Below, piece by piece: positions 27,357 to 40,938 of a DNA stretch of 64,000 bases. Position numbers and translations under genes: made by a program. The notes under the pieces are model-generated. The model saw nothing but the letters and a program-made list of their open reading frames with translations, searched no databases and was not told the origin of the DNA. The stretch lies in the NCBI GenBank assembly GCA_039545335.1, contig BCIN01000003.1:1993060-2057059 (forward strand). Direction: 5' to 3'. The stretch comes from Kondoa subrosea. Its lineage: Eukaryota. The stretch's first letter is position 1. Each line of letters starts with the position of its first letter.

Positions 27357-30300
27357 ATGAGTGCCCAAGAATTTGACTTGGATGCTGAACTCAATGGCGA
27401 GGAAGGGGACAATGCTGCTGCTGCTGGTCAAGCGGGAGATGAATCTCAAGAACAACAGAATGGCGCGGATAATCAAGATGAGGAGGAGGAGCAGGGTGAT
27501 GGTCAGGAGGGTGAAGAGGATGAGGATGAGGTGTGCTTTAGCTGCGTGCTGTACAAGAGACAGGCTCTGATTTGTGGAATTGCAGGACGAGGATGAAGGC
27601 AGCGCTGAAGAAAGTAATAGACCGGCAAAGGTGCGTTGCTGAAAGCCTATATGCTGTAGTCTAGCTTAGGTATCTCTTCAATGTACAGCGCCGCAAGATC
27701 AAACGCAAGGGCAATCGTTTCATTGATCTTGAAGCGTATGTCTTTTGATTCGAGTATTTGCACGCTATCTGCTGATACTGGTTCTTCATCTGCACAGTGA
27801 AGTCGACGAGGATGACGACGAAGAGGAAGATGATGAAGATGGGGTAGGCGCAGCAGGCAAGTCTTTTACAACTCTCACATTCCCGCAGCTCTAATTTCGA
27901 CTGTGGCCCAAACAGACGGCTTTGTGGTCACTGGACAAGATCTAGCTGGCCCAGAAGAAGATTTTGATGAAGCTGCAGCAAGCAGACAGAATAGGGCTTA
28001 TGATCGAAGGCACCGAGATGTCGAAGAAAAAGATTTACACAAGATTGCGGAGGAACTTGATGCAAGAGAAAGAGATAGAAGAAGAGCTGCTCGAGAAGCT
28101 GACGAAATGGGCGCAAATGGTCAATTACCTCGAAACTACTTGATGCCGGATATCAATGATCCCACTATCTGGGCTCTGAAAGTCAAGCCAGGAAGAGAAC
28201 AAGCTCTGATTCTTTCCATCTCAAGGAAAGCTGCTACGCAAGACATTCATATTGTTTCTGCTTTCTTCAGAGACTCGCTCAAGGGTTACATTTATGTTGA
28301 AGCAAGATCCGAAGCTCATGTTCGATCAGCTGTTCATGGTCTTGTTGGTGTCTACGCTACAAATCAACCTCTTTTGATCCCTCTGGAAGAAAGACCTGAT
28401 TTACTCAAGACTAGAAAAAGGGATGTTCCTCTTCAAATTGGCGGATGGGTCAGATTCAAGCGAGGCAAATATGCTGGCGATGTTGCTCAGATTGTTGATG
28501 TACCTGAGAACGCCGACGCAATCACTATCAAATTCGTTCCTCGTATTGATATGAACCCGAAACCTGAAGAAACGAGTGCGGATGGCAAGAAGCGAAAGAA
28601 AGCACCGTCAAACAACGCTGCATTCAGACCACCTCAACATTTTTTCAATGCAGATGAAATCAAATCCGTTTATCCTCCTCGATCAGTCTCATACGCCAAA
28701 GGAGTCTATCAATTCCAAAATGATGAATTTGAAGATGGGTATTGTATCAAAGATGTACGCTTGACTGCGCTCAACATTGAAGATATCAACCCAACTATCG
28801 ATGAAATCACCAAATTTGCGGGAGAAGCTCGATCAGCAGCAAAAGCTACCAAAACCGGAGAGCTGGACGAAGATGATACCACTGCAGAAAAAGATCGAGA
28901 TCAAGCTGCTCTGAACCTTTCCTTGATAGCTGATGCTGCAAGGAAAACTGCAAATTTGGCTTTACAACCTGGTGATCACGTAGAAATCTTTGAAGGCGAT
29001 TCTAAAGGAGTCGTCGGTGTTGTGGATTCGATCGTCAACGAAATCGTCACTCTCAACCCTTCGGAAGATGCACATCCAGATTTATCAGGAACAAAGCTTG
29101 ATGTGGACATCAAAAGCGTTCGAAAGAAGTTCAAAGTTGGAGACCATGTCAAAGTTCTCAGTGGTTCAAACGCAGACGAGACTGGTTTGGTCGTCAGTCT
29201 GGACAGGGAAACAGTCACTTTCATCTCGGATTTGAGCGGAGAAGAAATTACCGTCTTTGCCAAAGATATTAGAGAAGCTGCTGAAGTTGGTTCTGGTATC
29301 AACACCATTGGTCAATATCAGCTTCATGATTTGGTCCAGCTAGAGTAGGTGCAGTAGGGGATACCCTGAGACTATAGCTCATGGATTTTCTTCGCACCTA
29401 CAGTACTCAAACCTGTGGTGTCATTTACAAGATTGAAAGAGGTGTCTTCCGCGTGCTCGATCAGTCTGGTCAAGTCAAAGGTGTTCGACCGCAAAATTTG
29501 CAAGGCAAAGTCGTTTCCAATTCTGCCCTGGCTACGGATGCGGAAGGCAGCACTGTCAACATCGGCGATACTATGAAGGAAACTCAAGGCTCTGTGAGTT
29601 GCCGACTTTCCTGCATAGACTAATGCTTAGGAAGCCTTGCACGACATACAGTACAGCTCCGTACAGCGGGTTGGCAAAGTTCTACACATCTATCGATCTC
29701 TGTTCGCTTTCCTCTATAGTCGAGACTATGCTGAAAACGGAGGAGTTTTTGTCACTTATGCTCAATACCTCACTTCCGCTGCACCGAAGCAAAAGCGTGG
29801 AACCGATTACTCGAAACTTAACCCAGATCTCATGCCTCCACCATCAAATCGGGCCCCTCTTCAGGAGGACACCAATATCGCTGGCACTTCAGGTGCTAAG
29901 CGTGTCCGTGATCCTATTGTTGGCATGCTGGTCACCATTACCAAGGGCGCGCAGAAAGGATTCCAAGGCGTCGTGAAAGATGTCAATGGCATGGCTACGC
30001 GTATTGAGCTGACTTCCAATAACAAGACCGTAAACATCGATCGAATGAATCTATATGCAAAGTCAGTGAGGTACCAATTTTATCGCTCGAGACTGATCGA
30101 TTTGTTATATAACAGGGCACACAGATCGACAGGCGGTGCTCTTCTGCCTGTAGATGAGGCAATCAAGTCTTTCAGAACTCCTTCCGGAGCTCCTCGAGGG
30201 GATCAAAATGGTCGACCTGCAGGCAGTTATGCAAGCGGAGGAAGAACGTCCAATCCTTATAGCGGAGGTGGAGCGACTGCGAATCCGTACACTGCAGGAT

Positions 30301-31822
30301 CAAGAACTGCCAATCCCTATGCAGCAGGAAGCAGAACGGCGAATCCTTATGCAAATGGCAATGCGACTGCCAATCCCTATGCTAATGGCGGATCTACTTC
30401 GAATCCCTATGCTGGTGGAGCAACACCATCTGGCCGGAACTCGTCGTATGGCAACTCGTGGGCAGCAGGCGCGGCGACTCCTCATGCATCGACAAGTGGA
30501 ACGAGTTGGGACAGTTCTGCTAAAACACCTTATTCCGGCGCAAGTGGTCAGAACTCATTCAGCGCATCTGCTAGAACTCCTTACAACCCCAGTGCTGGCA
30601 ATTCGTACAGTGCTGGAAACAGATCACCCTATCATGCTCCTCAGCAAGACATCAAAGTACCTCCGCAAGGTAATACTTACGGTGGTTCGAGCAGCTATGG
30701 CGGTGTTGGTCAGAACAGAGGATCTGCGTCTACTGCACCTACACCTTATGCTTCTGCTCCGACACCTTACAGCGGCAACGCCAATACTCCTTATGGTGCT
30801 CCGACTCCTGCAGCTTCAGGTCAACGTTACGAAGATCCAGAAAGAAGAGCTTTGCGGGAACAAGCCATGCGAGATGCAGCGACGCCTGCTGCTGCACCTA
30901 CGCCCGCTGCTTATACCAATACTCCAGTAGCGTCGTACGATTACAATCCAGCTGGCACTGCGACCAACTCTATGCCTTTGAGCAAATCGAGATGGGGATC
31001 TGGTCCTACTTCAGCTCCAACGCCAGCTGTAAGGCGCTTTCTCCTTTGATAAAGTCGAAGACTGATCAATTGCGGATAGGCTCAAAATTACGATTATGAT
31101 ATGGCCGCACCTACACCAGGTGCCTCGCATGATCAGCAACGTCCGATGGGCGCACCTACTCCTGGTGTCTTTTCCGCGCCCACTCCAGGTGGCTATTCAG
31201 CACCAACACCTGGAGCTTTCTCAGCACCAACCCCCGGAGCTTTCACAGGAATCACACCTGGTTTCTCTGCTCAAACACCGGCAGCTTACGGGCAGACACC
31301 TGGTGCAGGGCTTTACGGCGCACCAACGCCTGCTGCAGGTCTATTGAATCAATCTCATGGAAGTACGACGAGCAGGCTTGGTGGCTTACCTGCAGATTGG
31401 GCAGAAATTGGATTAATTGTACAAGTGATCTCGCCTGATGGAAACGAAACGAAAAGCGGAACGATTCTGGAAGTCCAGCCCGATATCCTCAATACTACTT
31501 ATTTGTGTCAAGTTGCGGTTGAAGGAGAAGAAGATTCAAGATCTGTTGGAGTGAAACTTCTAGCACCTTATCAACCTGATGGACCTGGTCAAGATGTGAT
31601 TTGCGTTGGCAATGGACCTCATAGAAGAGAGAAGTTGAAGACCGATATGAGGGATGATGATACTTTCATCTGTCTGTTTGAAGATGGCAGAGGCAAGGAC
31701 CAGTTTGAAGCATCAAGATTGTGTTTGGTGAGTGTTTTTGCGCCGAATCGTTTGTGCTTACTAAGATTTCTTATTTTCCACAGTACGACAAGCAAATGAA
31801 GGATTCGATAGGAGAGGAGTAG
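27357..31822 (+). CDS. SPT5: Transcription elongation factor Spt5
   Basis: Acidic N-terminus, NGN domain ([23 protein letters not shown]), KOW motifs ([29 protein letters not shown]) and C-terminal repeat regions. Confidence 0.97.
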
Positions 31823-31969: not shown

Positions 31970-34150
31970 ATGGCTGTCAAACGACTCAAGAAGAAGGGGG
32001 ACTCTGGCGCTGCAAAGAACTACATTACCAGAACCAAGGCCATCAAGAAATTACAATGTTCGCTGGCAGACTTCCGCAGGCTTTGTATCCTGAAGGGCAT
32101 CTTCCCTCGTGAACCTCGGTCTAGGAAAAAGGCCAACAAAGGCTCTACGGCTCCTACTTCTTTTTACTATATCAAAGATATACAGTACCTAGGTTTGTGA
32201 ATGGTCTTCGAAAGTAGCAGTCGTGCTGGTTGCTGATGATATTTATTGACTGTAATAGCTCACGAGCCAGTCTTGGATCGATTGCGTCAACACAAGACCT
32301 TCGCGAAGAAGCTCAGCAGAGCTTTAGGCAGAGAACAGTATGGGTTGGCCAAGAATTTGCAAGAGAACAAACCAATGTTCAAGATTGATCATATCATCAA
32401 AGAGAGGTCAGCTTGGGCAGTCGGTTAGTAGCACAACGTGCTGAAGAATTTGTCTTGTTGATAGATATCCCACTTTCCCTGATGCGTTACGAGACCTGGA
32501 CGACGCTCTCTCCCTCGTTATGCTCTTTGCGCATCTTCCAGCTTCACCTCAAGTCTCTTCTACCGTAATCGCGAATTGTGCACGTCTGTCAGCAGAATGG
32601 CAATTGTATGTCATGAGGAGTAGAAGCCTGCGGAAGGTCTTCTTGAGCATTAAGGGGATCTACTATCAAGCTGAAGTCAAGGGTCAAACGATTACTTGGC
32701 TTGTACCGTTTTCTTTCACTCAGAATGTGAGTTTGGCACTGCCTGTTCCATTCAATCGTCAATGCTGATTCCTAGCAATAGATCCCCTCAGACATCGATT
32801 TCCGTATCATGTTAACTTTCATCGAACTCTATCAAACTCTTCTTGGATTCTGCTTTTACAAACTGTATACCGACAGCAATTTGATCTACCCACCAACAAT
32901 AGATCAAAATCGGGATGAAGGAGCAGCAGGAATTGGAGCTTTACTTTTGGAAGAAACTTCAAGACATTTGACTGTTGAAGGACAAGCGGAAACTGAAGCT
33001 GCCGTGAATGGAAACGGAAAGAAGATTTCAGCCAAACAAGTCAAGAAGCAAATCACCAATATTACGAAACATACAGATCCATCTGCTGTAGTAGAAGAAG
33101 AAGAGGAAGCTCAACCAGAAGTAGCTGTAGCGGAAGAATCGACTGAAACTGGATTTGTTGATGCATCAGGTCAACAACTCGCTACTAGTTCAGAAGCCAA
33201 CACCACTCTCTTTGACTCTTACTTTTTCTTCCTATCTCGTGAAGTTACTCGACCTACATTAGAATTCGTCATTCGATCTTTTGGTGGTCAAGTAGGATGG
33301 GATCCAGTACTTGGAGCAGGTTCACCTTTTACAGAAGATGACGCAAGAATAACACATCATGTAGTTGATCGACCAATCCCAACTGATCCAGAACTTTTAG
33401 CCATTCATCAAACTAGAATCAATGCTTTTCCAGGGAAAAGAAGTTTGATTCAACCTCAATGGGTAGTGGATTGCGTTAATCGGCAAACAATTCTATCTAC
33501 TGGTCCTTATTCTCCTGGTGCTACTTTACCACCACATTTATCTCCTTTCGTTAATGATAAATTGGTTAAAGAACAAGGTGGTTATGTTCCTGCTGAAGCT
33601 TTATCTATTGAAGGAGCAACGATTGAAGAAATGTCTGATGAGGAAGAAGAATCTGAATCTGAAGAGGAACAAGCAGAAGCAGAAGATGATGATGAAGCGA
33701 TTGTTGCAGTAGGAATGGAAACAGTTAAAGTTAAACCTTTACCACCTGCTTTATTGGCAGCAGCAAGAAATCCGGATAACGAAGAATTGCAACATGCTGC
33801 TGAAATTGAAGCGGAAGCTACAAACGTTCCTCATGCTGTCTTCACGCAGCAACTCAAACAAGTCAAGAAAGATTTGAAAAAGACTGCTCCGGAAATCATC
33901 ACGGCTACTAGAAAGAGAGGACCAGCTGCTGAAGAAGAGGATTTGAAGAATATTATGATTACTGGTAAGAAGAGGAAAGTGTATAACAAGATTCAACATT
34001 CGAAGGGAAAGAAGGCAGAAGAGGTAAGTCTAGTGACAGATGTGACCAAGAGTTGTGCTAACGTGTTCACGAATATAGAAAGAGAAGTTGGAGCAAAAGA
34101 AGAAAGCTTTGCAAAAAGCAGAGAAACGCTTAAAGCGAGGTGTTGCTTAG
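31970..34150 (+). CDS. NOP7: Pescadillo homolog (60S biogenesis, BRCT domain)
   Basis: [56 protein letters not shown] motifs ITHHVVDRP and [19 protein letters not shown]. Confidence 0.97.
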
Positions 34151-34234
34151 AAGTTTTTGTATTGTGCATTCATGTCATTTGCTCATCCTCTCTTTGTTCC
34201 TGTTCAATTCTCAATATGCTTAGAGTTTTGATTG

Positions 34235-34703
34235 TCAAGAAGACTTGTCGTCCTTGATCTTGATGTCGCCTTTGTGAGGACTGTATCATCCATCAGTATG
34301 GACCTGAAGCGGATTTGAGCGAGGGAAAACAAACCCTTCGTCTGATGCCTTGCTGTCTGATGACACAGCCTTATTGGCATGCTGATCGTCATGATCCGAG
34401 GCAGAAGGAGGCTAAGCATAGATGTAAGCTCAATTCTCGAAAGATTGATCGGTTTAGTTTACCTTTGGCATTCCGCCTTACGAAAGAGATAAATCAGCTC
34501 AAATATCTCGTCACAGGGTAATCCTGCTCACTGAGGGATCCTTCTTCAGCTCCGTGATCCTGGGAAGTGCCTGTACATCAGGATTAGATTGGATTCCGCT
34601 AGATCCCCAACGTCAACCAGCGTACTGTCGTGTTTGTGATCTTGGACGGCTAACAGGACGTTGAGCGCACGCTTTCCGAGGACCTGCTGTGCTTACAAGA
34701 CAT
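34235..34703 (-). CDS. Hidden 68-aa hydrophilic protein, 6 exons
   Basis: Five GT-AG introns of ~47-52 nt splice in frame to MSSVQDHKHDSTSQDHGAEEGSLSGMPKPPSASDHDDQHANKAVSSDSKASDEGPHKGDIKIKDDKSS-stop. Confidence 0.65.
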
Positions 34704-34875
34704 TTTGCTGATTCGTTGTTGAGTGACGAAATATTATTGTCAAGAACTTCGAATGCCCTGGATCTGTGGCTGCTACACTACTATGCGGTGCTGATGGCGG
34801 CTGAGTAATATACTCTGGAGCGCGCCTTGATCGCTCGACTTGCTAAAAGCTGACAAATTGCTTCGTGTTGTTTCC

Positions 34876-37208
34876 ATGTGTCGACGGGCTGTCCTTTCTC
34901 TTTCTCGTACACCAGCACTTGCTTTGTCTTTCTCCAGACCTCGTATCGTATCTGCGTTTCTCCCATCGCACCAAAGTCTGTTGTCTTGTCCAACAAGTAC
35001 TTTCCCCTTCGCACGGTCCTACTCTGCCACTGTTGAAAGTGACTTCTACTCCGCTATGTCTATCGAGAATGTATGGCCTTTATTCGTAACGTGCAGTGTA
35101 AGCTGATAAATGACTAAGTTGTATGAAATCAACGGGATCAAACCTCTTACTATCATCAACGAAGGCGATCAAGTGGAAGTACAGGGCAATGGAAAGAATC
35201 CTTACATTTTGAAAGCTTACGGAGAGTGAGTTTGTGTCGGCTTGCGCTCTTGTCTGTAATAATGGGGCGAGAATAGTCATTATGGCTGGTCAGCTTATGC
35301 GTGATAGCTGTTGGCTTGCCTAATTGCAAATTATGCGATGTATGACAGCTCCTGTGTAGGTTATCTTCAGAATGAGTGGAAGACTTGCTGATCATTGCTT
35401 TGGCAGCCTGCTTGGAAGATGCAAAAGGGTGCTCCAGTCGACGGAAGAAGGTGAGCCGTTCCCTACCAATAACCGATTCATCTAATCCGCTGAGCAGCTG
35501 CAAACATCTTCGCGCAACTCTAGGTGATGAGGTATATTTCTGTAATCTAACTTTTGAGAACCAACTCACTTATTCGCTAATAGTATGAAGATGCTCGTTT
35601 GGAAGCCAAAGGTGTCGAAGTCAAGAAGACTGGAGAAACAGCAAAGAAAGCTGCACCCAAGAAACGTAAAGCCAAAGCTGACGAAGAAGAAGCAGAGGAA
35701 GACAATGCACCTAAAGCTAGTACTTCGAAGAAAGCTAAGAAAGATGAAGATGATGCTAAAGCACCTGATTTACTTCTTGGTATGCGTCTAAATAGGTACA
35801 GCAGAGAGTCGTGGCTGATTATCCGGGGCCGCAGCTAATAAATTCGATGTCGAGAAAATGAAGCCTGATCCTACCAAGTTCTGGCTGTCTGAGAAGGTGC
35901 GAGGAGATTGTGTGCAGATGTCAGCGTGAGCTGATTCTTCGACCTCCCTGTGCACAGCTGGACGGCGTTCGTGTTTGTAAGCGATTTGCTTGTCGGCTTA
36001 TCAACCATCTTATAGTCGAGAGGCAGTCTGGGATGGAAAAGTCATACTTTAGCTCATTGTCCAGCTATGTGCTGACTCGATTTGATGCAGGGCAACCTGA
36101 TTTCTCGCTTGGGCAACAAGTTTCATGCGCCGGATTCTTTCACAGAGCGTGCGTTCGCAGCAGAATCAGTAAGATACATACTAAGATCTGACAATTTGCG
36201 CACAGTGCTGCCTCGGGACCAGACTCTCGATGGCGAACTCTTCATGAAGTAAGCCTATCCCCTTCGCTGCTGACCTGATCCACTAATATCGATTAGACGC
36301 AACGCTTTCTCTGAAACCATCTCTATCGTTCGATCCAACGCATCAGCTAAGTGGCCTTCTATCACTTTCATGGTTTTCGATATTCCCTCTCAAGGCCAAT
36401 TACCATTCGAAGAACGAATCGCTTACCTGAAACGACTTTTCCCTAAAGCTCCTTCTTTCAGATTAGGCGAAGAGGAAGAAGCTAAAGGAAAAGACAATGT
36501 TACTTTGGTTGATCGTAAATTATCTTCCTTTGTGTTGGTCGTCAAAAGCTGATTTATTTGACGGTAGAGGTGAAATGTACTGGATCGGATCATCTCTTGT
36601 CTACTTTGGCTATGGTAGAGAAGGTTGGAGGAGAAGGTCTTATGATGAGAAAAGAGAAATCCAAGTACGAAGGCAAGCGAAGTGCAACTTTGCTTAAAGT
36701 CAAGGTTGGGATATCACTTTAGTCGATATCGCCAATGCTAATTTACGACAGACCTTCTATGACGCTGAAGCTGAAGTCATTGGCTATGAAGATGGTGAGC
36801 TCAAATTGACGGAAGTTGTCGATACTGCTGATAGATTGACAGGCAAAGGCAAGTATAAAGGCATGACTGGTAGCTTGAAATGTAAGATGGAGTCAGGCAA
36901 AACTTTTAAAGGTGAGAAGTATTATTCTTAATGATAAGCCATTTGCTAACATTCGTGATAGTTGGCTCTGGGATGGATGATGCGCAACGTCAAGATCCCC
37001 CAAAAGTTGGAGCGATTATCAATTACAGATTTCAAGAAATCACTAAAGATGGAGTTCCTCGTTTCCCTACCTTTACTGGGTCAGTCTTCTGCCTCGCTTC
37101 AGAATCTTTGGCTGACATGCTGGATTTAGCGAGGCGATTGATAAGACGGAGGCGAAAGATGCAGTGCTACCTAATAAAGCAGGCGAAGGAGAAGACGAAG
37201 ATGAATGA
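34876..37208 (+). CDS. Minimal ATP-dependent DNA ligase (bacterial LigE/viral-like adenylation plus OB domains) with N-terminal SWIM zinc finger and putative mitochondrial presequence
   Basis: Motif I WLSEKLDGVR, ISRLGNKF, LDGELF, FMVFDIP, EGLMMR, LLKVK, DAEAEVIGY..GKGKYKGMTGSL, FKVGSGM, GVPRFPTF. SWIM CSCPAW...SCKHLR is assembled from micro-exons. Confidence 0.9.
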
Positions 37209-37546
37209 AGCAGGTGGAAGTAGCTCAAGAGCCGCAAACAATGGGCTGGCTGAGCTGAGCTTAAGCACACGAACCCGAAAGAAGCATAAGAACAGTCATG
37301 TGGGATTATAGTGACCCAATTAGCGAGAAAGACTAAAAAGAGACAAAGCATGGCAGCGAAAGCAATGAAATCTGAAGTCACTTAGAAATTGAGATTGCTT
37401 TGGGTCTCCAATTTAGGCTCGCTACAGCTATTGAACAGCATCATTTAGAACAATTAGCTAGTATTCTACGAGTATATTGAGAAGCGAGTGGCCGCGTCAG
37501 TATAAAACAAGTTTGTGGGTTTGGACAGCATCAACGACTTCTAGAC

Positions 37547-38674
37547 ATGGCATCAGGCGGCGGAGGAGCATACAGGCAAGTACAAGGAGCTCTGATCTAG
37601 CTGGCTTCAGTTGACAATAGCTCGCTAATGCTTGCAGCTTCTCACTTACGACATTCTCGCCCAGCGGTCGGCTCTTTCATCTACCTCAAGGACATCCTAG
37701 CTCATGTGCAATTGACAGGCAAGCTTGTACAGATCGAACATGCTCTAGCAGCTGTCAATCAAGGCACTACAAGTCTAGGAATCAAAGCTACGAATGGCAT
37801 AGTCATTGCGACTGAGAAACGAGTGCGTGTCCTCCATCCCATTCCTCTATCATTCACTCACTTGAACACAGATCGTATCACCTCTGATAGACGACAGCAT
37901 GATTGAGAAAGTCGCATTGATCTGTCCAAACATTGGAATGGTTTATTCTGGCATGGGACCCGATTTCAGAGTTTTAGTAGCCAAAGCAAGAAAATCAGCT
38001 CAAGCTTATTGGAAGATTTATCAAGAGTATCCACCTACTAGAGTTCTGGTTCAGGAAATAGCTACAGTTATGCAAAGTGCTACTCAATCTGGGTCAGTCG
38101 TCGTCGGTGCTGCTGTATCAGATTAGTACTGATGCACTTTCGACGGGATGACAGAGGAATAAGACCGTATGGTGTTTCTATACTCGTTGCGGGATGGGAT
38201 GAAAGTAGAGGTCCAACTTTGTATCAAGTGGATCCTTCTGGTTCTTTCTGGGCATGGAAAGCAAGCGCGATAGGGAAGAATCAAACGAACGCAAAGACTT
38301 TCTTGGAAAAGAGGTGCGTCTATGTGTACTTGGTTTATATCACATTGCGCTGATTTCCAATGCTCATGTTGCACAGATACAACGATGACATTTCATTAGA
38401 AGATGCTATTCATACTGCTCTACTTACGCTCAAAGAAGGCTTCGAAGGTCAAATGACGGAAAAGACTGTAGAGATTGGCGTGATTGGAACGGGTGAAGGT
38501 TGGGCTGCGAAGTCTGAAGCGAGAGTGCATGGAGGTGAAGAAGCTGGAGAGGTAGTGAAACCGAAACCAACGTTCCGAAAGCTTACAGAAGCTGAAGTCA
38601 AGGATTTCTTAGCGCTGGTGAGTCATTTCACCTGTGCGACATATGTTGAATTTATCTAACGCTTGTCACAGTAA
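37547..38674 (+). CDS. PRE8: 20S proteasome subunit alpha-2
   Basis: [78 protein letters not shown]. The last exon contributes only the stop codon. Confidence 0.97.
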
Positions 38675-38789: not shown

Positions 38790-40714
38790 TCATGATAATA
38801 AGTTACTGCAACACGCTTCTACATCAACTACTTCCTTTGATGCGTTCGCAGATAATACCACGTAATCATCTTTTCCTATTGCAACATCATCCTCAATCCG
38901 CACTGCCAGACCTTGGAAATGTTTTGGAAACCGGTCTTCAAAGGGTACACTTCCCTTACATGTCAGCATCATGTGATATGAGTGGAGGGAGAAGCTCACT
39001 AGACTGCTGGTTCTATTGTGATCACCATACCGGATTTAATCCTTATTACAGAAGTTAGCACTTCAACCGCACGGAGTCAAAATAGACAAACCTTTGATCC
39101 CTCTTGAAGGTCGTAGTATCATGTAAATCGATGCCCAAAGGATGACACAGGTAATGTGGGTACAGCTTCTCGATTTCGCCATAACCCAAATGAAAACCAA
39201 TTTGTTTCAGTTCTGTCTTGAGTAATCGAACGCTTTCATTATGGAGTGCATTCATTGTATGACCCAAATCTTCCGTACAAAGTTTGATGCATGCTTTATT
39301 GACGTTTAAAACTGCTGTATAAAGATCTTGTTGAGCTGAAGAGAATCGACCAGAGATAGGGAAAGTTCTAGTTATGTCTGATGCGTAGCCTGAATATTCG
39401 CATCCTGCATCAAGTAGAAGCATATCGTTTGATTGCAGTATTCGATCGTTGGAAGTGTAATGTAGAGTCAGACCTGAAGAACCTGAAGCGCAAACAGGTA
39501 CGTAGGCTGGTCGAGCTGATCCGAGTTGAGAGGTATGGTATTCGAAATGTGAGACTAGTTGGGATTCATTTAAACCAGGTCGTGCGAATTTCATGACCTT
39601 CCGCGTTTGTGAGATCGTGCCAGCTGGAGCATAATAGAAAGACTCACCTCAGCATGCGCATGTGCGCTGATATCGGCCGCCTTCTTCATACAAGCAATTT
39701 CCATTTCACTCTTGACGACTCGAAGCCTTTCCACTTCCTTCTTGAGTGATCTTGTCTTCGTTGCGTGTTTGCCATACAGACTGGAAATCACTGCTTCTCT
39801 GTCTCCTTTTCTCCTGCCTATCCCAAACAGATCTAAACTACTTGTTTGTGCAGTCTGAGTGAAGAAATCAATGATGTTCTTGCTAACTTTCCTCTGAGAA
39901 ATTCGAGATGATGGAATACTTGATTCTTCTTCTGGTACATCAACATAAATTGGACCTGTTTGAGTATGAGAGCCAAGGATGAGTCGGAGTTGATGAGCTA
40001 ATTCAGAGATATCGAAAGCTTCATCTGCGCCAAACACTTCTTTTGCTCCTTCTAAGCCTGTTCGGGGACCTTCCCATATTTCTCTATCCGGGTTCTTGGG
40101 TTGTACAAAGAGTTTCATCGAATACCCTCGTGAGGAAGAATTCTTCTCTACATAAGCCAATACCTTAGGGATGAGTAGAAAACAGAGTATTGAAGCGCAC
40201 GAAGAATAAGAGCAGCATCTGGTTCTTGAAAACCAGTCAAGTACCAGAAATCGGTAGCTTGACGAAATTTGTAACTACAGACATGAAAGCGAAAATGAAG
40301 CGGCAGACAATGAGACCAAGACACAAAAAGGAGAGCAAAATCAATGGAAGCTGACAAGATAGATTGAGACATGTATTGCATTCGAGCGCCGCAAGAAATC
40401 ACAACACTTCCAGCAGGTAACGGATCCATCAATTTCCTCCTTCTGCTTTCATATTCCGCGCTTGAAATGCCCGGAGTCAGTTCACCAGGCTTTAATAAAT
40501 GCGGATGCGTTGAAGGCAATGGCTGCCCATATCGGTGAGGCCAGATTGAAGTCGACTGCTCTGGAGCTTGCAAAGCTTGCGCAGGCGCTATTGTCGCATA
40601 GGTATTCGACAGTCTGGGTATACATTTACATCTCGCTTGCTTAGCAGTGCGTCTGGCAGTGCTCCTGATCGATTGAGCGACCGACATCAGAGTTGAAGAA
40701 AAAGAGCGGCTCAT
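38790..40714 (-). CDS. ICP55: Mitochondrial intermediate cleaving peptidase 55 / Xaa-Pro aminopeptidase (M24B)
   Basis: Presequence-like N-terminus, GQPLPSTHPHLLKPGELTPGIS, FRQATDFWYLTGFQEPD, LLDAGCEYSGYASDITRTFP, PHYLCHPLGIDLHD, VRIEDDV. The 3' end is approximate. Confidence 0.92.
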
Positions 40715-40938
40715 AACGCAACGGTCATGTTTGTACTGCTCCTCCGCTCGCTCGGTACCGCTGCATGATGTCCGCGCAGTCTCTTTGCAAGAATCTTAGC
40801 CTTGTGAAGCACCTTCGACTTCCTGCATGTTCCCAATATTTCTTCTTGGCCCAAGAAGGCTGCATGTGCTCGCGGAGCAGCTAGTGCTTGTATTTATGTC
40901 CGGCTGTCATGTTTCAGCGTTTTTAGCTTGTCTTCTCA

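Follow-up and report, generated by a model that had tools for sequence, protein, structure and literature searches.

How did a fungus come by a DNA ligase of compact, bacterial-looking build, preceded by a zinc finger and by two in-frame start codons, and where in the cell would such an enzyme act? The gene that raises this question lies at 34876-37208 of the window, the whole 64,000-nucleotide stretch of Kondoa subrosea DNA that was analyzed (contig BCIN01000003.1, positions 1,993,060 to 2,057,059). The coding region was spliced by hand and by script, with the following result.

34876..37208, + strand: whole coding region, 18 exons and 17 introns
34876-35070, 35119-35225, 35277-35288, 35349-35355, 35407-35450, 35498-35531, + strand: exons 1-6
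35584-35779, 35835-35896, 35958-35976, 36027-36040, 36091-36148, 36206-36248, + strand: exons 7-12
36297-36514, 36568-36704, 36752-36794, 36843-36911, 36962-37079, 37130-37208, + strand: exons 13-18

All 17 introns were of the GT..AG type with lengths of 47-61 nt, slightly fewer than the 18-20 of the original prediction. The coding sequence of 1455 nt comprised 484 codons and a TGA stop (37206-37208), yielding a protein of 484 amino acids. This product gave a single continuous alignment with intronless bacterial homologs, from residue 78 to residues 459-476 (identity 41-46% over 383-406 aa, E 1e-95 to 1e-102), and it retained 61/61 columns that were invariant in a 71-sequence MAFFT alignment. 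The clean splicing, the collinearity and the conserved columns confirmed that 34876-37208 is a real gene, and all of the motifs quoted for it could be located in the spliced product.

The catalytic part of the protein was assigned to two domains.

35835..36704, + strand: nucleotidyltransferase (adenylation) domain, exons 8-14, from PF01068 and motif positions
36752..37079, + strand: OB-fold domain of the Lig E type (PF14743, DNA_ligase_OB_2), exons 15-17, with motif VI (GVPRFP) at its end

The nucleotidyltransferase motifs I, III, IIIa, IV and V were all found, the KxDG lysine with them. The sequence EKLDGVR occupies residues 218-224, with the codon of the catalytic Lys219 at 35894-35896 in motif I; motif III lies at 36226-36243, and motifs IV and V both fall in exon 14. 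LDGELF (residues 257-262), EGLMMR (359-364), LLKVK (378-382) and GVPRFP (450-455) complete the set. Domain calls were based on single exons plus orthologs of at most 61% core identity: exon 14 by itself matched PF01068 with E 2.1e-5 (24.7 bits, under the cut-off of 26.2), a family that scored above cut-off in 37 of the 40 homologs scanned, and exon 17 by itself matched PF14743 with E 4.2e-16 (59.1 bits, cut-off 28), identifying the OB type as PF14743 and not PF04679. Pfam detected no Lig1-type DNA-binding domain (PF04675) in six exon translations or 43 homologs and no BRCT domain in the exons of the window protein. Against the PDB, the core of a fungal ortholog matched 8u6x (1.1e-62), 4d05 (1.4e-49) and 6gdr (2.8e-45), whereas the Lig1-like archaeal entry 3gde reached only 2e-4. 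A position nested in Lig1, Lig3 or Lig4 was rejected because of the PF14743 type of the OB domain and this difference between E values of 2e-4 and 1e-62. The Pfam and PDB scores thus agree with the compact adenylation-plus-OB ligase, free of Lig1/Lig4 DNA-binding and BRCT domains, that had been proposed, and the core is predicted with assurance to be a bacterial-type minimal ATP-dependent ligase (PF01068 + PF14743).

Ahead of the core lies a small cysteine-containing module.

35146..35592, + strand: SWIM-like zinc-finger module, approximately residues 75-136, exons 2-7, introns included
35287-35288 + 35349 (C105), 35353-35355 (C107), 35499-35501 (C123), 35505-35507 (H125), + strand: predicted zinc ligands

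The CxC..CxH finger itself (residues 105-125) is split across exons 3-6, micro-exons of 12 and 7 nt among them. With C105, C107, C123 and H125 present and the four ligand columns invariant in 71/71 aligned sequences, the intact CxC..CxH finger described earlier was upheld. The best Pfam family for the corresponding ortholog piece was PF04434, at 15.4 bits and below the 19.6 cut-off; 44 of 60 bacterial modules matched this family at E ≤ 1, the best at 0.0015. Many UniRef orthologs already carry the name "SWIM-type domain-containing protein," and in a language-model atlas the SWIM set held 24 of the 30 nearest named clusters (score 0.93). An AF2 model of a bacterial module (pLDDT 89.4) had three strands followed by helices; in it CxC follows strand 3 and CxH lies where a helix begins. 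Foldseek gave no match to the modeled finger at E ≤ 0.001, and VIA-align among 48161 chains reached at most Z 2.6, with Rieske-type ferredoxins, scores that neither assign the finger to a family nor exclude one.

Of 267 sequences compared, 135 had a strict finger motif ahead of the core, and finger-bearing homologs were also seen in Pigoraptor, which is a unicellular animal relative, in a green alga and in an oomycete. The module recurs in 79/80 bacterial relatives (loci from Planctomycetota, Myxococcota and other groups), where it is collinear with the window protein from residue 78; the finger-ligase fusion is, by this comparison, not a fungal invention, and the idea that the finger was gained during domestication had to be dropped. 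Full-text searching found no literature linking SWIM to this ligase family, and the main text of neither PMC10665377 nor PMC7470946 contains the word SWIM. The module is conserved residue for residue among many bacterial phyla, fungi, oomycetes, algae and a unicellular animal relative; this conservation, together with the lack of discussion in the literature searched, makes it a well-defined and testable accessory domain of a large enzyme family. A role as a nick sensor, as first suggested for it, is speculation.

The module is joined to the core by a charged segment, and the protein ends in a short tail.

35593..35834, + strand: Lys/Glu/Ala-rich linker, seen in the sequence and presumed disordered
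37130..37205, + strand: short acidic C-terminal tail, from the exon 18 translation

The NLS-like PKKRKAK that had been noted after the finger was located in this linker at residues 158-164 (35656-35676). Basic clusters occurred in the linkers of 77 of 91 SWIM-bearing homologs, a weak signal because these linkers are of low complexity, and all Pfam matches on exon 7, which encodes the linker, were below cut-off. No WGR, PBZ or BRCT domain followed the core in the window protein; bacterial relatives have a WGR domain in place of its tail.

The original prediction regarded the enzyme as an extra ligase; it is not an unrecognized one, for the family is already published as eukaryotic DNA ligase E (Nat Commun 2023, PMC10665377), and the window gene is a fungal member of the family described there. 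Relatives at E ≤ 1e-3 numbered 2565 among 8000 scored candidates, many of those from Basidiomycota and chytrids being named DNA ligase or SWIM-type domain protein, and another search yielded 16333 representatives at E ≤ 1e-3, 1134 of them at E ≤ 1e-30. Accessory domains among 40 homologs scanned were PBZ (8), BRCT (6), WGR (9) and Macro, WWE, Pol X and UBA (1 each). Fungal NT-OB_2 enzymes cluster with leaderless or WGR-bearing bacterial ones in the analyses of PMC7470946 and PMC8455567. The window protein has no hydrophobic leader that could serve as a periplasmic signal peptide, and because it lacks a leader and groups with the leaderless, decorated branch, it belongs with the wider ligase E in the sense used in PMC10665377 rather than with periplasmic Lig E.

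A tree was built by a quick search with SH-aLRT support only, and many of its deep forks were without resolution. The short sequences used as the first outgroup did not form a clade and had long branches; they were replaced by periplasmic Lig E, and six rows (P0229, P0245, P0224, P0218, P0260 and P0217) were left out of the final tree. Periplasmic gammaproteobacterial Lig E split off with SH-aLRT 95. Chytrid, Agaricomycotina and Pucciniomycotina sequences clustered largely by taxon, with 11/12 Agaricomycotina in a single clade (SH-aLRT 96) and 9/10 Pucciniomycotina in another (SH-aLRT 98). The window protein joined Pucciniomycotina and allies (SH-aLRT 82), its closest row being P0028 with 61% core identity.

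These groupings bear on the possibility that the gene was transferred recently, in this lineage, from a bacterium or giant virus and gained its introns afterwards. A core of bacterial or viral type would fit such an event, and a case for horizontal acquisition has been made for rotifers and, as plausible, for other eukaryotes (PMC10665377). Nevertheless, the finger-linker-core layout extends across Basidiomycota, chytrids, an oomycete, a green alga and Pigoraptor, and the gene contains 17 spliceosomal introns and has ordinary fungal neighbors (Pescadillo, a proteasome subunit and SPT5). As fungal sequences cluster roughly by taxonomy, any transfer was ancient and not lineage-specific. The broad range of eukaryotic orthologs and the taxon-wise grouping led us to disfavor a recent transfer, which we regard as extremely improbable, and the horizontal acquisition originally envisaged does not stand as a recent event. 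Overall, the gene is very probably an unexceptional ortholog of eukaryotic DNA ligase E that this fungus holds by vertical inheritance.

We then considered the two candidate starts, for which dual targeting to mitochondria and nucleus had been proposed.

34876..35055, + strand: upstream ATG (34876-34878) and 60-codon extension, from composition
35056..35058, + strand: second in-frame ATG, encoding Met61, from the MAFFT start-Met column

The spliced frame contained both ATGs, at 34876 and 35056 and 180 nt apart, exactly as predicted. The extension is rich in Arg, Ser and Leu, with 6 Arg and 0 Lys and an R-x-Y/S motif at residues 47-50; its first 53 residues contain neither Asp nor Glu, in accord with the acid-free segment of about 50 residues reported earlier. 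It would be a mitochondrial presequence if translated and a CT-rich leader if not. Met61 fell in a start-Met column that was invariant in 71/71 bacterial and short-form fungal homologs (MAFFT), and seven Agaricomycete orthologs start at precisely the residue aligned to it. Because it coincides with the start Met of all 71 homologs, Met61 is, on the alignment, the ancestral start of the family and the point at which the conserved protein begins.

Met61 may accordingly be the sole start, in which case 34876-35055 would be a CT-rich core promoter or 5' leader with a chance in-frame ATG and the protein would be purely nuclear; we give this an even chance. In addition to the alignment, the composition of the segment is consistent with such a leader: pyrimidines make up 67% of it and no stop interrupts any of the three + frames, so that composition alone would lead one to expect a Ser/Leu/Pro-rich reading without acidic residues. 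CT-rich tracts adjoin start sites in many fungal promoters, which counts toward the same reading. Tests for a coding signal in the segment were not significant. In a codon-usage test the annotated frame was best by 5.9 nats, a margin matched by 12-14% of shuffles and reached by 22% of upstream intergenic windows, with 11% of true coding pieces at or below it. The hydrophobic moment of the extension was reached by 1333 of 5000 shuffles (27%). When exon 1 (65 aa) was searched against longer proteins, the database gave 36 candidates, none at E ≤ 10, and BLAST of the extension alone against 266 homolog proteins gave a best E of 1.1. What speaks against a start at Met61 only is that the annotated frame is still the best and most Arg-rich of the three, that in Sporidiobolales, a related order, the equivalent extension is clearly part of the protein, and that a residual likeness, albeit weak, connects the window extension to those of Sporidiobolales.

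The same data can be read as leaky scanning on one mRNA, with ATG 34876 giving a form that carries a cleavable presequence for mitochondria and would seal nicks in mtDNA, and ATG 35056 giving a nuclear form. The Arg-rich, Lys-free and acid-free composition and the R-x-Y/S motif would suit a presequence, and the -3 base, T at the first ATG and G at the second, would suit leaky scanning, as would the lack of any ATG between the two starts in any frame. The latter depletion was not significant, however, since zero ATGs also occurred in 19% of mononucleotide and 63% of codon-order shuffles (P 0.19 and 0.63), and ATGs at 34753, 34783 and 34794 would precede the first start if transcription began far upstream. 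At least 10 Pucciniomycotina orthologs (Rhodosporidiobolus, Rhodotorula, Sporobolomyces and Leucosporidium) have Arg-rich extensions of 71-96 aa and keep an internal Met 34-45 residues before the finger, which is the exact start of the short-form annotations, although in GC-rich yeasts the calling of longest ORFs may account for part of the long-form annotations. Sporidiobolales extensions are conserved as protein (0/500 shuffles reached the score in three pairs). The window extension showed a weak likeness to the ortholog extensions, the summed score being reached by 6/300 shuffles and the best pair at 0.008. An unrelated, transcript-derived Pigoraptor protein also has an acid-free N-terminus, before its PBZ, finger and ligase. 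On the opposite side, the composition and shuffle results above would equally be given by a leader, and Agaricomycete, chytrid and bacterial homologs begin at the Met61 equivalent; the comparison with homologs thus points both ways. We consider leaky scanning to two forms, and with it dual targeting, plausible but less likely than not, and put the use of ATG 34876 in addition to ATG 35056 at a similar, perhaps slightly higher, level.

The enzyme is expected from its family to seal nicks in an ATP-dependent manner: Lys219 would be adenylated, AMP would pass to the 5' phosphate at the nick, and the OB domain would close over the DNA. The CxC..CxH module of about 60 aa, predicted to bind zinc, is tethered ahead of the core by the flexible, Lys-rich linker of about 80 aa and may act as a DNA- or partner-binding recruitment module. 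Module, linker position and core were inherited as one, the same layout, then followed by WGR, being found in many bacteria. The Met61 form, with its basic linker, would most likely be a nuclear accessory ligase for single-strand-break or base-excision repair. Such a role fits the fusions to PBZ, BRCT, WGR, Macro, WWE and Pol X in relatives, and it fits the radiation-induced rotifer and Mortierella enzymes, ligase E being described as nuclear and X-ray induced in Adineta and Mortierella (PMC10665377).

The window gene is itself ordinary, one more fungal ligase E and not a new kind of gene. Should the Arg-rich extensions of this protein and of those in Sporidiobolales prove to be true presequences, ligase E would serve mtDNA maintenance in basidiomycete yeasts, which would bear on mitochondrial nick sealing in lineages without LIG3. 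A broader proposal, which we hold only tentatively and think rather unlikely, is that Pucciniomycotina ligase E, including the window protein, gained a presequence upstream of the kept ancestral Met, so that one gene gives a nuclear and a mitochondrial ligase. This would be convergent with LIG3 and ligase K, on a bacterial finger-ligase chassis, and the zinc module, found from Planctomycetota to fungi, would be a break- or partner-recognition domain of a very large family.

Known systems resemble the window protein in different respects. Dual-targeted repair enzymes with two AUGs (yeast Pif1 and Cdc9, vertebrate LIG3) resemble it in having a presequence-like segment between two in-frame ATGs, the first of them with a weak -3 base, and an NLS-like basic cluster further downstream, although its sequence signals are statistically inseparable from a CT-rich leader. 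Yeast Cdc9 and vertebrate LIG3 have alternative starts and are dual-targeted, and the kinetoplastid ligase K is mitochondrial. Pif1, which is dual-targeted via leaky scanning (bioRxiv 10.1101/2024.01.21.576553), is with Cdc9 and LIG3 a precedent for two forms from one gene. PMC10665377 discusses ligase K as a relative of ligase E.

Canonical periplasmic Lig E (4d05, 6gdr, 8u6x; 6gdr being the Alteromonas mediterranea enzyme, PMC7470946) has the same minimal NTase + OB_2 core and provides the best PDB matches, but it carries a signal peptide and no further module and forms the separate clade described above. By eye, most of 16 ORFs from 23 gammaproteobacterial loci had a signal-peptide-like hydrophobic leader, and no finger was seen in their printed N-termini.

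The bacterial cytoplasmic finger-LigE-WGR ligases of Planctomycetota, Myxococcota, Verrucomicrobiota and others, which correspond to the NT-OB_2-WGR cluster of PMC7470946, have a homologous N-terminal finger and a core collinear with that of the window protein (41-46% identity over ~390 aa). They have a short linker, a C-terminal WGR domain and no introns, whereas in the fungal protein the linker is long and Lys-rich, WGR is absent and an N-terminal extension is optional. The eukaryotic DNA ligase E enzymes AvLigE of Adineta vaga and MvLigE of Mortierella verticillata (PMC10665377) have in common with the window protein the PF01068 + PF14743 core, which sets them apart from Lig1/3/4; like it, they come from eukaryotic genes with introns, add recruitment modules to the core and are presumed to act in nuclear repair. 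Their added modules, as described there, are C-terminal PBZ fingers, whereas the window protein has no PBZ and bears an N-terminal CxC..CxH finger.

Stop-to-stop frames listed over 34400-37700 consisted of short coding stretches interrupted by short introns, and the coding pieces were joined by coordinates into a ligase gene of 18 exons and 17 GT..AG introns (47-61 nt). The coding sequence of 1455 nt, with its start ATG at 34876 and its stop TGA at 37206-37208, specifies a 484-residue product. This spliced model reproduced exactly the gene coordinates of the original prediction (34876 to 37208), and every motif quoted there was located in the product. Motif searches of the spliced product (+ strand) identified the following features:

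Motif I with Lys219, spliced product, + strand
LDGELF, EGLMMR, LLKVK and GVPRFP, spliced product, + strand
CxC..CxH finger, residues 105-125, + strand
PKKRKAK, residues 158-164, + strand

When compared with intronless bacterial proteins, the spliced protein aligned as one segment (residues 78 to 459-476, 41-46% identity, E 1e-95 to 1e-102), and it kept all 61 invariant columns of a 71-sequence alignment; these two results validate the model, and on sequence grounds we consider the gene to be real. Exons 3-6 together code for the finger. Two of these, at 35277-35288 (12 nt) and 35349-35355 (7 nt), are micro-exons coding for its first half, around CxC, and were placed by homology to intronless relatives only. 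A Pescadillo (Nop7)-like gene lies upstream (32782-34254, + strand; Pescadillo_N 3.7e-16, with a BRCT_2 match slightly below the cut-off), and its stop at ~34257 leaves only ~618 bp to accommodate both its 3' end and the promoter and leader of the ligase. The other neighbors are ordinary, intron-split housekeeping genes:

29631-31046, + strand, SPT5 (KOW4 and KOW5 domains)
37548-38126, + strand, proteasome subunit (PF00227)
39594-40795, - strand, aminopeptidase P-like gene (AMP_N)

By itself, exon 17 matched PF14743 (59.1 bits, cut-off 28), and exon 14 scored 24.7 bits for PF01068, below the cut-off of 26.2. Exon 13 as a query retrieved three proteins, including a Ceratobasidium core (P0001) and a 605-residue Rhodosporidiobolus protein of the same layout (P0002), and orthologs stood in for the spliced protein in database comparisons. 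Among solved structures, P0001 best matched those of Lig E (8u6x, 1.1e-62; 4d05, 1.4e-49; 6gdr, 2.8e-45); the value for the Chlorella virus ligase was lower in significance (∼4e-12). The core is therefore of the Lig E type, and the prediction of a bacterial-style core was correct. Descent of the core from Lig1/3/4 was rejected, given the value of 2e-4 for the Lig1-like archaeal 3gde versus 1.1e-62 for 8u6x.

With P0002 as query, 8000 candidates were scored and 2565 of them were relatives at E ≤ 1e-3. The 120 matches listed were mostly from Basidiomycota (Pucciniomycotina, Agaricomycotina, Tilletia) and chytrids, and many bear the name "DNA ligase/mRNA capping enzyme" or the UniRef label "SWIM-type domain-containing protein". 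Exhaustive HMMER searching with the P0001 core recovered 16333 representatives at E ≤ 1e-3, of which 1134 reached E ≤ 1e-30. Pfam scanning of 40 homologs detected PF14743 and PF01068 in all 40 (PF01068 slightly below the cut-off in three) and the Lig1-type N-terminal domain in none. The accessory domains of these 40 proteins were PBZ (8), WGR (9), BRCT (6), and Macro, WWE, a Pol X module and UBA (one each), the repertoire of strand-break repair linked to poly(ADP-ribose). Among the named non-fungal members are Pythium insidiosum, the green alga Cymbomonas tetramitiformis and Pigoraptor chileana. The ligase in the window belongs to a known, catalogued kind, ligase E, of which the gene itself is a further member. 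In P0167, P0214 and P0221 (unnamed metagenome proteins and Cymbomonas), ligase E cores occur in fusions with a complete Pol X (Pol beta/lambda-like) module, a Macro domain, or TRAF-zf, WWE, BRCT and the finger; such fusions are candidates for enzymes that fill and seal gaps within one polypeptide or that are guided by ADP-ribose.

Of the 267 sequences collected, 135 have the strict finger pattern, C-x-C-P-x-aromatic ... C-K-H, on the N-terminal side of the core. A scan of prokaryote species genomes gave 587 relatives, from which 80 loci were kept, and 79 of these code for the same module at the extreme N-terminus, then the core, then usually WGR. Carriers include Paludisphaera soli, Blastopirellula marina and Labilithrix luteola, along with many MAGs from Planctomycetota, Myxococcota, Verrucomicrobiota, Acidobacteriota and others. 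Because the bacterial loci share the module, the finger is not a eukaryotic addition but was inherited with the ligase, and the idea that it joined the ligase during domestication was not borne out. The four presumed zinc ligands and seven more module positions were invariant in all 71 sequences of the joint bacterial-fungal alignment. Membership in SWIM is likely, although formally sub-threshold: PF04434 was the best Pfam family at 15.4 bits (cut-off 19.6) and matched 44 of 60 bacterial modules at E ≤ 1 (best 0.0015), the SWIM set held 24 of the 30 nearest named clusters in a protein atlas, and UniRef gives many orthologs the SWIM-type name. The AlphaFold model of a bacterial module was confident (pLDDT 89.4), with three strands followed by helices, and its comparison with solved structures gave no convincing relative. 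Neither PMC10665377 nor PMC7470946 uses the word "SWIM" in its main text, and full-text literature searches found no paper linking SWIM to the ligase E family. Three matches occur in the Labilithrix luteola genome. One is a finger-WGR form; the other two are 342-codon copies, almost identical to each other, which are separated by ∼54 kb and lie close to the beginning of the chromosome record.

For an outgroup, 201 genomes from the class of one gammaproteobacterial locus were searched; 25 had a match, and 16 ORFs were extracted from 23 loci. By eye, most began with a hydrophobic leader resembling a signal peptide, and the finger was absent from every N-terminus inspected; this group is canonical periplasmic Lig E. 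A first tree was dropped for its poor outgroup, and six long-branch rows were removed before rebuilding. In the final core tree (79 rows, quick IQ-TREE, SH-aLRT support), 12 periplasmic Lig E rows split off at 95. Fungal rows occupied another part of the tree (87-89) with chytrids basal, 11 of 12 Agaricomycotina in one group (96) and 9 of 10 Pucciniomycotina in another (98). Support was 82 for the grouping of the window protein with Pucciniomycotina, Tilletia and allies, and Meredithblackwellia P0028 (61% core identity) was the row nearest to it. Since fungal rows group by taxon, the pattern is consistent with descent inside fungi from an early ancestor, and any bacteria-eukaryote transfer, in whichever direction, is old; the predicted horizontal acquisition would be an ancient event. 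Thirteen named bacterial finger-WGR rows and five unnamed WGR rows formed a shallow clade (88). The bacterial finger-LigE-WGR genes come from at least eight phyla, and their short branches (e.g., end branches under 0.1 for a Verrucomicrobiae and an Acidobacteriota row) suggest frequent transfer among bacteria.

In the alignment, Met61 (35056) occupies the column that holds the start Met of all 71 bacterial and short-form fungal homologs, and seven Agaricomycete orthologs start exactly there, so it is the ancestral start and residues 1-60 are an add-on. Cdc9 and LIG3 use alternative starts, and ligase K is mitochondrial. Dual mitochondrial/nuclear targeting through two starts, as originally predicted, is a tentative possibility here. 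In composition the extension is presequence-like, with 28% Ser+Thr, 6 Arg, no Lys and no acidic residue until position 54, and it has an R-x-Y/S site at residues 47-50. However, its DNA is 67% pyrimidine and open in all three forward frames, so an acid-free, Ser/Leu/Pro-rich reading needs no selection, and no intrinsic test was significant: the lack of ATGs between 34876 and 35056 gave a shuffling P of 0.19 or 0.63; a codon-usage margin as large as the observed 5.9 nats arose in 12-14% of shuffled sequences and in 22% of intergenic windows upstream; and 27% of shuffles matched the hydrophobic moment. Three additional ATGs lie at 34753-34794. Comparison with homologs partly supports the extension: ten Pucciniomycotina orthologs have Arg-rich extensions of 71-96 residues, with an internal Met where short annotations start, and those of Sporidiobolales are clearly conserved as protein (score reached by 0 of 500 shuffles, three pairs), whereas the seven Agaricomycete orthologs start at the Met61 position. 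The window extension resembles the ortholog extensions weakly: 6 of 300 shuffles attained the summed score, and the best single pair stood at 0.008. An extension-only BLAST gave E ≥ 1, and a database search with exon 1 found nothing. That Met61 is the sole start used has about an even chance. Two Leucosporidium creatinivorum proteins, P0031 and P0033, have near-identical cores, one annotated with a 71-residue Arg-rich extension and the other starting at the internal Met; because a few residues differ, they look like recent duplicates or alleles and not one gene modelled twice. The transcript-derived Pigoraptor chileana protein P0174 (PBZ, finger, ligase E) is acid-free up to position 53, an independent case of a presequence-like start.

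The protein combines an intact adenylation and OB core, in which every family-invariant residue is kept, with a conserved zinc module on a tether and a basic linker. By analogy with the family, Lys219 would be adenylated in an ATP-dependent manner before nick sealing. Speculatively, the finger might recognize DNA ends or a partner. PMC10665377 defines eukaryotic ligase E, argues for horizontal acquisition, and describes a nuclear, radiation-induced rotifer enzyme, an X-ray-induced Mortierella ortholog and improved radiation tolerance of human cells on expression. From these findings, and from the domains that accompany the core in related proteins, a function in the nucleus, in strand-break or base-excision repair, may be proposed. 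PMC7470946 connects mostly fungal enzymes of the same NT-OB_2 core to a bacterial WGR-bearing cluster, and PMC8455567 groups leaderless Myxococcales sequences with a few fungal ones, the latter called of unknown function. Compared to periplasmic Lig E, mostly leader-bearing and fingerless by eye in gammaproteobacteria, the ligase described here possesses the finger; with the bacterial finger-LigE-WGR enzymes it has the N-terminal module and core in common, WGR being usual on the bacterial side.
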